The notes beneath the pieces are model-generated. The model made no database searches and had not been told where the DNA came from. It worked only from the letters and a program-made list of their open reading frames with translations. The position numbers and the translations under genes were made by a program. From Gammaproteobacteria bacterium (GTDB lineage Bacteria > Pseudomonadota > Gammaproteobacteria > UBA6186 > Azoamicaceae), in the NCBI GenBank assembly GCA_013288135.1, contig JABDCL010000004.1, positions 19,949 through 83,948 on the forward strand: DNA of 64,000 bases, in the 5' to 3' direction. Numbering within the stretch: position 1 is the first letter of the stretch; each line of letters starts with the position of its first letter. Positions 61,466 to 62,658 of the stretch are shown here, piece after piece.

Positions 61466-62658
61466 AAGAATGTCCAAAACGCGTTATTGTTGGGCTTTCA
61501 GGAGGGGTAGATTCTTCAGTCTCTTTACTTCTTTTAAAAAACCAGGGGTATGCTGTAGAAGCGCTTTTCATGAAAAATTGGGAAGAAGACGACACCGATA
61601 CCTATTGTGCCGCGTCAAATGATCTTGCAGATGCAAAAGCCGTGTGTGAGTCATTGGGAATAAAACTTCATACCGTGAATTTTGCAAAAGAATATTGGGA
61701 TACGGTTTTTGAACATTTTTTAACAGAATTTAAACTCGGGCGAACGCCTAATCCTGACATCCTTTGTAACCGAGAAATTAAATTTAAAGCATTTTTAAAT
61801 TATGCTTTATCATTGGGTGCAGATTATATTGCAACAGGTCATTATGTTGCTAAAGAATTTAAAAATCCAAATTATCATCTTTCCAAAGCCAAAGATTCTG
61901 AAAAAGATCAAAGTTATTTTTTATATACACTGACACAATCTGTTTTATCCAGAGTTTTATTTCCGCTCGGAAGCTTAGATAAAAAAACAGTACGGGGCAT
62001 TGCTAAAGAAGCTGGATTTATTAATCATAATAAAAAAGACAGTACGGGGCTTTGTTTTGTCGGAGAAAGAAAATTCAAAACTTTTTTAAACCGTTACTTG
62101 CCCGCCAAACCTGGAAACATTGAAACACCCACAGGAAAAATTATAGGGAAACATGAAGGTCTTATGTATTATACCTTAGGGCAAAGACAAGGATTAGGGA
62201 TTGGGGGTCAACGCGACAGTGCCAACAATCCTTGGTATGTTGTAGACAAAGATTTGGACCGCAATAGACTAATTGTTGTGCAAGATAAAGATAATCCTTT
62301 ATTATTTAAAGATTCTTTGACTGCTAAAGATTTGCATTGGATTGGGGGAAGCCCTCCCCCGTCGTCGAGCGGTTTTTGGAATATTTTTTTGGCAAAGGAG
62401 AGGTGTTTGAGCGCGCAGCGCGAGTTTAGCGACTGCAGCCAAAGAAATATTCCAAAAACCGCTCATACCACTTTTACATGTGCTGCAAAAATACGGTACA
62501 GACAAAAAGAACAACCCTGTGAAGTGATTTTGGAAAACACTGAAAATTCTAATCAATGTTTTGTTAAATTTACAACTCCCCAACGGGCAATTACGCCTGG
62601 TCAAGCAATCGTTTTTTATTCTGATAATATCTGTTTAGGCGGAGGAACTATACTATGA
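61462..62658 (+). CDS. mnmA: tRNA 2-thiouridine(34) synthase, carrying an in-frame palindromic insertion
   Basis: PP-loop [11 protein letters not shown], plus NPDILCN and KDQSYFL motifs. There are about 34 extra residues between LHW and CAAKIRYRQ. Confidence 0.9.
62367..62464. mobile_element. 98-bp palindromic element inserted in frame in mnmA
   Basis: Arms GAGCGGTTTTTGGAATATTTTTTTGGC (62367..62393) and GCCAAAGAAATATTCCAAAAACCGCTC (62438..62464). Encodes [33 protein letters not shown]. Confidence 0.8.

Follow-up and report, generated by a model that had tools for sequence, protein, structure and literature searches.

Palindromes inserted in frame in essential genes have mostly been regarded as a peculiarity of Rickettsia, with scattered cases in Coxiella. 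In-frame insertions of MITEs and RPEs are documented for both genera (PMC10969869, PMC5896051). RPE-1 to RPE-10 (Ogata et al. 2000, 2002) are hairpin-forming repeats that lie in frame in unrelated housekeeping genes (PMC10969869), and QMITE1 and QMITE2 of Coxiella burnetii, which have stable stem-loop transcripts, are multi-copy elements with a defined consensus that, where they are in frame, mostly occupy hypothetical genes or the 3' ends of genes (PMC5896051). Correia/NEMIS, ERIC and other MITEs are 100-160 bp long, are co-transcribed with their neighbours and form long hairpins that RNase III can cut (PMC10969869). Based on a 64-kb window, by which we mean the whole stretch of gammaproteobacterial DNA that was analysed, we now describe a 98-nt palindrome situated in frame in mnmA, the gene for tRNA 2-thiouridine synthase (Table 1). 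The insertion is real, cleanly delimited and lineage-specific, and it adds a further example to the protein-coding palindromes already described in Rickettsia and Coxiella. We think it fairly probable that a small non-autonomous palindromic element of the MITE/RPE-like kind inserted into mnmA in frame and was tolerated there.

The likeness to the described systems lies in behaviour and architecture. Both the RPEs and the mnmA element are hairpin repeats of roughly 100-150 bp that add a fold-compatible peptide and have other copies in intergenic DNA, and both occur in low-GC, apparently intracellular bacteria, although the RPE host is Rickettsia whereas the host here is a gammaproteobacterium. 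RPE-1 has dozens of members against the two known for the present family, and the mnmA element is the shorter, at 98 nt. No sequence relation to the RPEs was detected by the arm-word scan of GTDB or by the search with the six-frame peptides of the element, the two comparisons that were made. The QMITEs resemble it in being MITE-like elements of an intracellular gammaproteobacterium that are in some cases in frame or ORF-extending (PMC5896051), but the mnmA element, unlike most in-frame QMITEs, sits in the middle of the gene for a conserved enzyme, and the two were compared in sequence only through the absence of the arm word in the GTDB scan. Correia/NEMIS, ERIC and other MITEs likewise have terminal inverted repeats of about 26 nt round a short centre (PMC10969869). 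However, those elements are overwhelmingly intergenic, with TA target-site duplications and tens to hundreds of copies, none of which was seen for the mnmA element. The RAYT-mobilised REP/REPIN sequences are also hairpin-forming repeats of similar total length (PMC3733652), and a CGTC tetranucleotide happens to be placed directly 5' of the mnmA element, but the second copy carries neither a GTAG nor a CGTC tag, the arm holds a direct TTTTTGG repeat and not a REP-like mini-palindrome, and no Y1_Tnp/RAYT transposase is found among the window ORFs scanned. In its behaviour the element represents the RPE phenomenon and, to a lesser degree, that of the Coxiella QMITEs, while as far as could be tested it lies outside the sequence families of either.

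Table 1. Positions in the 64-kb window of the mnmA insertion, the related element and the other features discussed.
Feature	Position	Strand	Description
mnmA (tRNA 2-thiouridine synthase)	61462-62658	+	398 aa, intact ORF hosting the insert
Surplus over orthologs	62359-62463	+	105 nt = 35 codons, residues 300-334 (ortholog alignment); boundaries movable by a few nt within 62359-62472
98-nt palindromic element	62367-62464	+	left arm 62367-62393, centre 62394-62437, right arm 62438-62464
Conserved core	62397-62433	+	GGAGAGGTGTTT (62397-62408) and GCGAGTTTAGCGAC (62420-62433), recurring in the related element
Antisense ORF	62302-62604	-	100 aa, spans the mnmA element
Related palindromic element	17093-17184	-	92 nt, 26-nt arms, 40-nt centre, intergenic
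tsaB-like gene	17198-17818		
DUF47/PhoU-like gene	16463-17089		
fadB-like enoyl-CoA hydratase/3-hydroxyacyl-CoA dehydrogenase	54466-56547	-	hosts the palindrome at 55862-55935
Palindrome in the fadB-like gene	~55862-55935		G-rich, CCCCACTTTGGAAAAGGGGGGTTAGGGGGGATTT...AAATCCCCCCCTAGCCCCCCCTTTATAAAAGTGGGG
Complete IS	21908-23478	- (transposase)	DDE_Tnp_1 21969-23420; 40-nt terminal inverted repeats, 95% complementary
Palindromes with IS-like arms	29190-29316, 47239-47305		
Multi-copy palindrome family at gene ends	15425-15492, 27801-27932, 56571-56667 (and 9392-9502)		GGGGTCAAGTC... arms
Sulfatase ORF	13417-15669		
AT-rich palindrome	4221-4268		perfect, 22 nt, intergenic
GC-rich palindrome	4455-4586		very GC-rich, 30-nt arms (GGGCCGGCACGGGGACCGGCCCC...); intergenic
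Sel1-repeat, ankyrin-repeat, rnc and lexA-like genes (listed jointly)	33690-36887, 47319-49265, 30209-30892, 60914-61465		

The palindrome itself is far beyond chance. Its arms, GAGCGGTTTTTGGAATATTTTTTTGGC and GCCAAAGAAATATTCCAAAAACCGCTC, are 27 nt each with 44 nt between them and are complementary at 26 of the 27 positions (96%); the lone mismatch is a T/G pair that becomes a U.G wobble in the sense RNA, where the folded stem is a perfect 27-bp helix. The RNA fold reaches -55.8 kcal/mol, whereas dinucleotide shuffles average -29.5 +/- 3.7 (z -7.2, with none of 200 as good), and the DNA fold reaches -33 kcal/mol (z -6.7). A search of the window with the arm, allowing up to three mismatches, returns nothing but its own two arms, and in 100 shuffled versions of the window it had no match at all. 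The element is stop-free in three of the six frames, the frame used in mnmA being one of them. The initial annotation had placed a palindrome with 27-bp arms at exactly these coordinates and had read it as an in-frame insertion with a translated peptide; position, frame and peptide all agree with what was found here, in that the ORF is open straight through the 98 nt, its translation gives the same peptide, and the Pfam domains PF03054, PF20259 and PF20258 (HUP, PRC-barrel and C-terminal barrel) are matched in one frame on both sides of the insert. A 100-aa ORF also spans the element on the minus strand because the palindrome is open on the opposite strand too; this ORF is in all likelihood spurious and could easily mislead gene callers.

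The host protein is MnmA, with a PP-loop, a catalytic Cys pair and a three-domain fold (TM 0.92 to 2DET_A). The phmmer comparison with E. coli MnmA (2DER) gives 1.3e-134, and the HMMER match is split into query residues 1-298 and 337-397, which map up to and from 2DER chain residues 311 and 315, so that about 38 residues of the window protein are unmatched where E. coli MnmA has three, in its loop DREPFTGTMR. When 17 orthologs were aligned, the surplus was seen to begin after ...HWIGGSPP. The loop from LHW to AK.RYRQ is 13 residues long in 104 of the 113 orthologs that could be measured among the 120 best MnmA hits, versus 48 in the window protein, and the distance from LHW to the Cys is 11 residues in E. 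coli and 46 here, which bears out the length gap relative to E. coli MnmA that had been claimed. The 35-codon segment is present in none of the orthologs, neither the 17 aligned, a comparison the initial annotation had proposed, nor the 113 whose loops were measured, and even the closest MnmA orthologs among 5.8 billion protein clusters share no more than 65% identity with the window protein and have a length of about 360 aa. It should be noted that the surplus of 105 nt exceeds the 98-nt palindrome by about 7 nt of inserted DNA that lies outside the inverted repeat, on a side that the alignment does not fix. Upstream, the start of mnmA shares 4 nt (ATGA) with a short lexA-like gene of 183 aa, whose match to S24 is partial.

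The initial annotation had itself named an assembly artefact as a possible explanation, and palindromes are known to cause assembly errors such as hairpin chimeras. However, the same 151 nt around the element are 100% identical in the window and in the Logan assemblies SRR8431266 and SRR8433139, which come from different runs and encode the identical MnmA protein. That the gene might instead be dead is opposed by the uninterrupted ORF, the presence of all invariant MnmA residues and the single frame shared by both flanking domains, and we regard either an artefact or a dead gene as exceedingly improbable. Specifically, the PP-loop SGGVDS (S13-S18), D99, C102 and C198 sit in invariant columns of the 17-ortholog alignment, and mnmA with its insert therefore looks functional, judged from sequence. 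The element thus combines a stop-free, in-frame insertion with a conserved gene and compatibility with the protein's fold, as in the protein-coding palindromes described previously.

An AlphaFold2 (AF2) model of the window MnmA built with the ortholog alignment (pTM 0.82) fits E. coli MnmA 2DET_A with a target-normalised TM of 0.92 and an rmsd of 2.3 A, and pLDDT falls below 50 only in residues 304-332, which are flanked by confident strands at 282-293 and 336-343. Because the model fits the E. coli structure and the low confidence is confined to this segment, the insert is predicted to be an excursion from the inter-strand loop at the entrance to the C-terminal barrel, where the central domain ends with strand 282-293 and the C-terminal beta-barrel starts with strand 336-343. 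This is the region near the barrel onto which the initial annotation had suggested mapping it. Within the insert AF2 draws one short helix, at residues 305-315. Together with the open frame and the variability of the loop in the clade, this helix is what might be cited in favour of the insert being an adaptive module, through which MnmA would acquire a new surface or a new interaction. We consider such a module very unlikely, since pLDDT is below 50 across 304-332, the insert peptide has no homolog, and its sequence is dictated by the DNA palindrome, which encodes the mirror peptides SGFWNI...NIPKTA on both strands. The sole match of the 40-aa insert among 1.84 billion representatives (full HMMER) is a eukaryotic SRCR repeat protein, rejected as spurious because its score is the sum over six weak repeats.

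The same loop has changed in length elsewhere in the clade. Two relatives (P0029 and P0024) share the gene order fadE-like acyl-CoA dehydrogenase, lexA-like, mnmA and hflD, and in both of them the loop is also extended. In P0029 it is 43 residues long and contains a run of 9-bp tandem repeats encoding DVSKVSDILDVLNVLDLLDVSK (L083 10930-11000), and in P0024 it is 32 residues long and contains a 19-aa non-palindromic segment with no notable fold (L089). A tandem repeat and a non-palindromic segment are ruled out as elements of the kind seen in the window, and the core motifs are absent from the relatives' syntenic loci. Changes in length are concentrated in this MnmA loop in the clade, and from three independent insertions of different origin in one loop we argue that the site tolerates extra sequence, which is why an insertion in mnmA was not lethal.

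Evidence that the palindrome is an element in its own right comes from a second copy. The initial annotation had seen no other copy in the window, and this stands for the arms, the arm search it had proposed having found none, but not for the centre, since a core-sharing relative lies 45 kb away in the intergenic space between the tsaB-like and DUF47/PhoU-like genes. A search with the 98-nt element by nhmmer gives a weak match there, and the minus-strand centre of the relative has GGAGAGGTGTTT (12/12) and GCGAGTTTNGCGAC (13/13), which agree with the mnmA element in order and orientation and are similarly spaced. When the 44-nt centre alone was compared with the window by Smith-Waterman, this locus ranks first with a score of 32 versus 22.7 +/- 2.2 for shuffled queries, of which one in 200 reached 32, and the match falls exactly in the centre of another hairpin of equal dimensions. 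The mnmA element hence belongs to a family of at least two members with a conserved core, and the homologous centre and shared architecture strengthen its reading as an element. Because the relative is intergenic, the conservation of the core is a property of the element and not a coding constraint. The relative ends 4 nt upstream of the DUF47/PhoU-like ATG, so that a possible ribosome-binding site, GAAGGG, would fall inside the stem.

The second copy also bears on whether the palindrome is not mobile at all but a local product of the indel-prone loop, generated there by template switching during replication or by inverted duplication. The arms are single-copy in everything searched, the mnmA element has no target-site duplication (flanks CGTCGTC|...|ATACCAC, read directly), and the loop of the relatives gained unrelated inserts by other routes, including the slippage-type 9-bp tandem repeat, all of which would be in keeping with a local event. 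But such an event does not predict a homologous centre in an independent intergenic palindrome 45 kb away, and in the alignment the element shows no resemblance, in any of its parts, to the mnmA sequence on either side or to the loop of the orthologs. We therefore hold a local origin to be unlikely. At the 17-kb copy a target-site duplication is absent as well (flanks GGAACAC|...|TATATGT), a TA duplication being indistinguishable there from the palindrome ends.

In contrast to the core, the arms of the two elements are only about 50% alike, although their complementarity is kept. Between the two, 13 of the 27 arm pairs differ on both sides, and all still pair on the strand that has the sense of the neighbouring genes; the three arm mismatches in the pair of elements are all G.U on this strand and A.C on the other. 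Both elements are in sense orientation inside transcription units. A covariance model, R1, built from the two copies gives the mnmA element and the 17-kb element sense-strand scores of 116 and 98 bits, compared with 51 and 37 bits for the antisense strand. These properties raise the question of whether the element is kept for an RNA-hairpin role, for example by providing a site for RNase III processing or for stability and so tuning mnmA-hflD expression, with the peptide as a by-product. The perfect helix in the sense RNA, the G.U pattern and sense orientation just described, the presence of rnc (RNase III) in the window and the non-coding nature of the conserved core in the 17-kb copy are what such a role would lead one to expect. 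Against it, only three mismatches are informative and the chance of their pattern is about 1 in 8, complementary arms are equally expected of terminal repeats recognised by a transposase, no Rfam family beyond generic hairpin models is matched, and no promoter or terminator signal rises above background, such that we judge retention for an RNA role improbable. A broader version of this idea is that protein-coding palindromes are spreading in this lineage as in Rickettsia, two different ones being in frame in housekeeping genes (mnmA and the fadB-like gene) within 64 kb, and that the family, with its conserved core of about 40 nt and freely co-varying arms, is a structured RNA and not just selfish DNA, a module with a function of its own such as RNase III-dependent control; maintenance at the RNA level would follow from all three arm mismatches being G.U on the transcribed strand. 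This we put forward as speculative and rather doubtful.

Searches for further members were made well beyond the locus. R1 finds no third family member in the window, in a 9-kb extension of it or in the relatives' loci, where other hairpins reach at most 37 bits and score about equally on both strands, so they are structure-only matches; a third copy is thus absent from the approximately 73 kb of host genome examined. No copy with the arms of the mnmA element is present in the 64-kb window and its extension of about 9 kb, and an exact 18-nt arm word finds no both-arm match in 185,579 GTDB species representatives. The 74 GTDB loci that do contain the word were rejected as chance, each having a single arm with 23 nt or fewer matching in unrelated taxa, as were three matches to a 20-nt arm in JGI metagenomes, two of them in mitochondrial cox1-like sequence, and four single-arm matches in IMG/VR, in which the core pattern has no match. 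The concatenated six-frame translation of the element matched only this MnmA among 5.8 billion protein clusters, and that of the 17-kb element and the other palindromic families matched only the window's own sulfatase ORF. In Rfam no family reached its gathering threshold, only generic hairpin or miRNA models appearing below it, and a scan of 62100-62800 for promoters and terminators gave nothing above background. Readings of the mnmA insert as an attC site, an intein or an intron were rejected on its anatomy (no GTTRRRY end, a length of 98 nt and an open frame).

Based on these results we propose the following hypothetical sequence of events for the element that we regard as MITE/RPE-like. 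The element would have arrived by transposition or another copy-and-insert process, entering mnmA at the codons for the surface loop before the C-terminal beta-barrel. With 105 nt added and a stop-free frame the gene would stay open, and the enzyme would gain a 35-residue, probably flexible, excursion. Selection on mnmA would remove insertions that are out of frame, contain stops or fall in the structural core, and this one would have been retained because 105 nt is divisible by three, no stop occurs in the frame that it entered and the loop can accommodate more sequence. The segment is presumably translated and not removed, and the 27-bp hairpin in the mRNA would be merely tolerated, the insertion being neutral. 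The element has the architecture of a MITE, with terminal inverted repeats round a short centre and a total below about 400 bp (27, 44 and 98 nt for arm, centre and whole), but no target-site duplication flanks either copy, one diverged relative and no third copy are present in about 73 kb of the genome, and the one IS in the 64-kb window has unrelated terminal repeats. The setting is in keeping with a mobile element, being rich in other palindromic repeat families and containing an IS with a DDE transposase and a second in-frame palindrome. The mobile-element reading is weakest in that neither a target-site duplication nor a parent IS nor a copy with the same arms was found, and the mobility of the two-member family is something we infer.

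The essence of the finding is that the mnmA case provides a clear example of such an insertion in the middle of a conserved tRNA modification enzyme in an unrelated, uncultured low-GC gammaproteobacterium. A second in-frame palindrome nearby and an intergenic copy with the shared core accompany it. The case suggests that insertions of this kind are a recurrent feature of low-GC intracellular bacteria, and it lets nature show how far a defined loop of MnmA can be lengthened. Annotators should recognise inserts of this type, which lengthen proteins, create spurious antisense ORFs such as the one over the mnmA element and break short-read assemblies. The interest would be greater still if protein-coding palindromes proved to have a Rickettsia-like abundance in this lineage, or if selection acted on the hairpin at the RNA level.

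The second in-frame palindrome is different in sequence and lies in the linker of the fadB-like gene, where it adds about 16-17 residues (NSPLWKRGVRGDFLNRK...) that are absent from three syntenic relatives. The window, with a GC content of 34-42%, contains several other families of long palindromes, almost all of them intergenic. The only IS in the 64 kb has terminal repeats unrelated to the mnmA element; its repeat tip, CATGGTGTC, resembles the arms of two palindromes in the window, which may be its MITE derivatives. Members of a multi-copy family lie at gene ends, and the sulfatase ORF and a convergent PHO4 gene both read into one of them (15425-15492), so that the annotated 3' ends of these two genes may be element-derived. 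The AT-rich and GC-rich palindromes are neighbours, and a 4.5-kb Logan contig from this organism stops about 200 nt before the former and about 450 nt before the latter, which suggests that these repeats break short-read assemblies.

Sel1-repeat and ankyrin-repeat proteins are typical of intracellular bacteria. The window encodes one of each, of 1065 and 648 aa, respectively, and its gene content apparently gives the host a Legionellales-like, intracellular flavour. Long hairpins are also present in the relatives' loci (L089 14018-14096, 83-184 and 9040-9122; L083 11974-12046), where they score 23-33 bits as structure-only matches to R1, so that an abundance of palindromic elements may characterise the clade as a whole.
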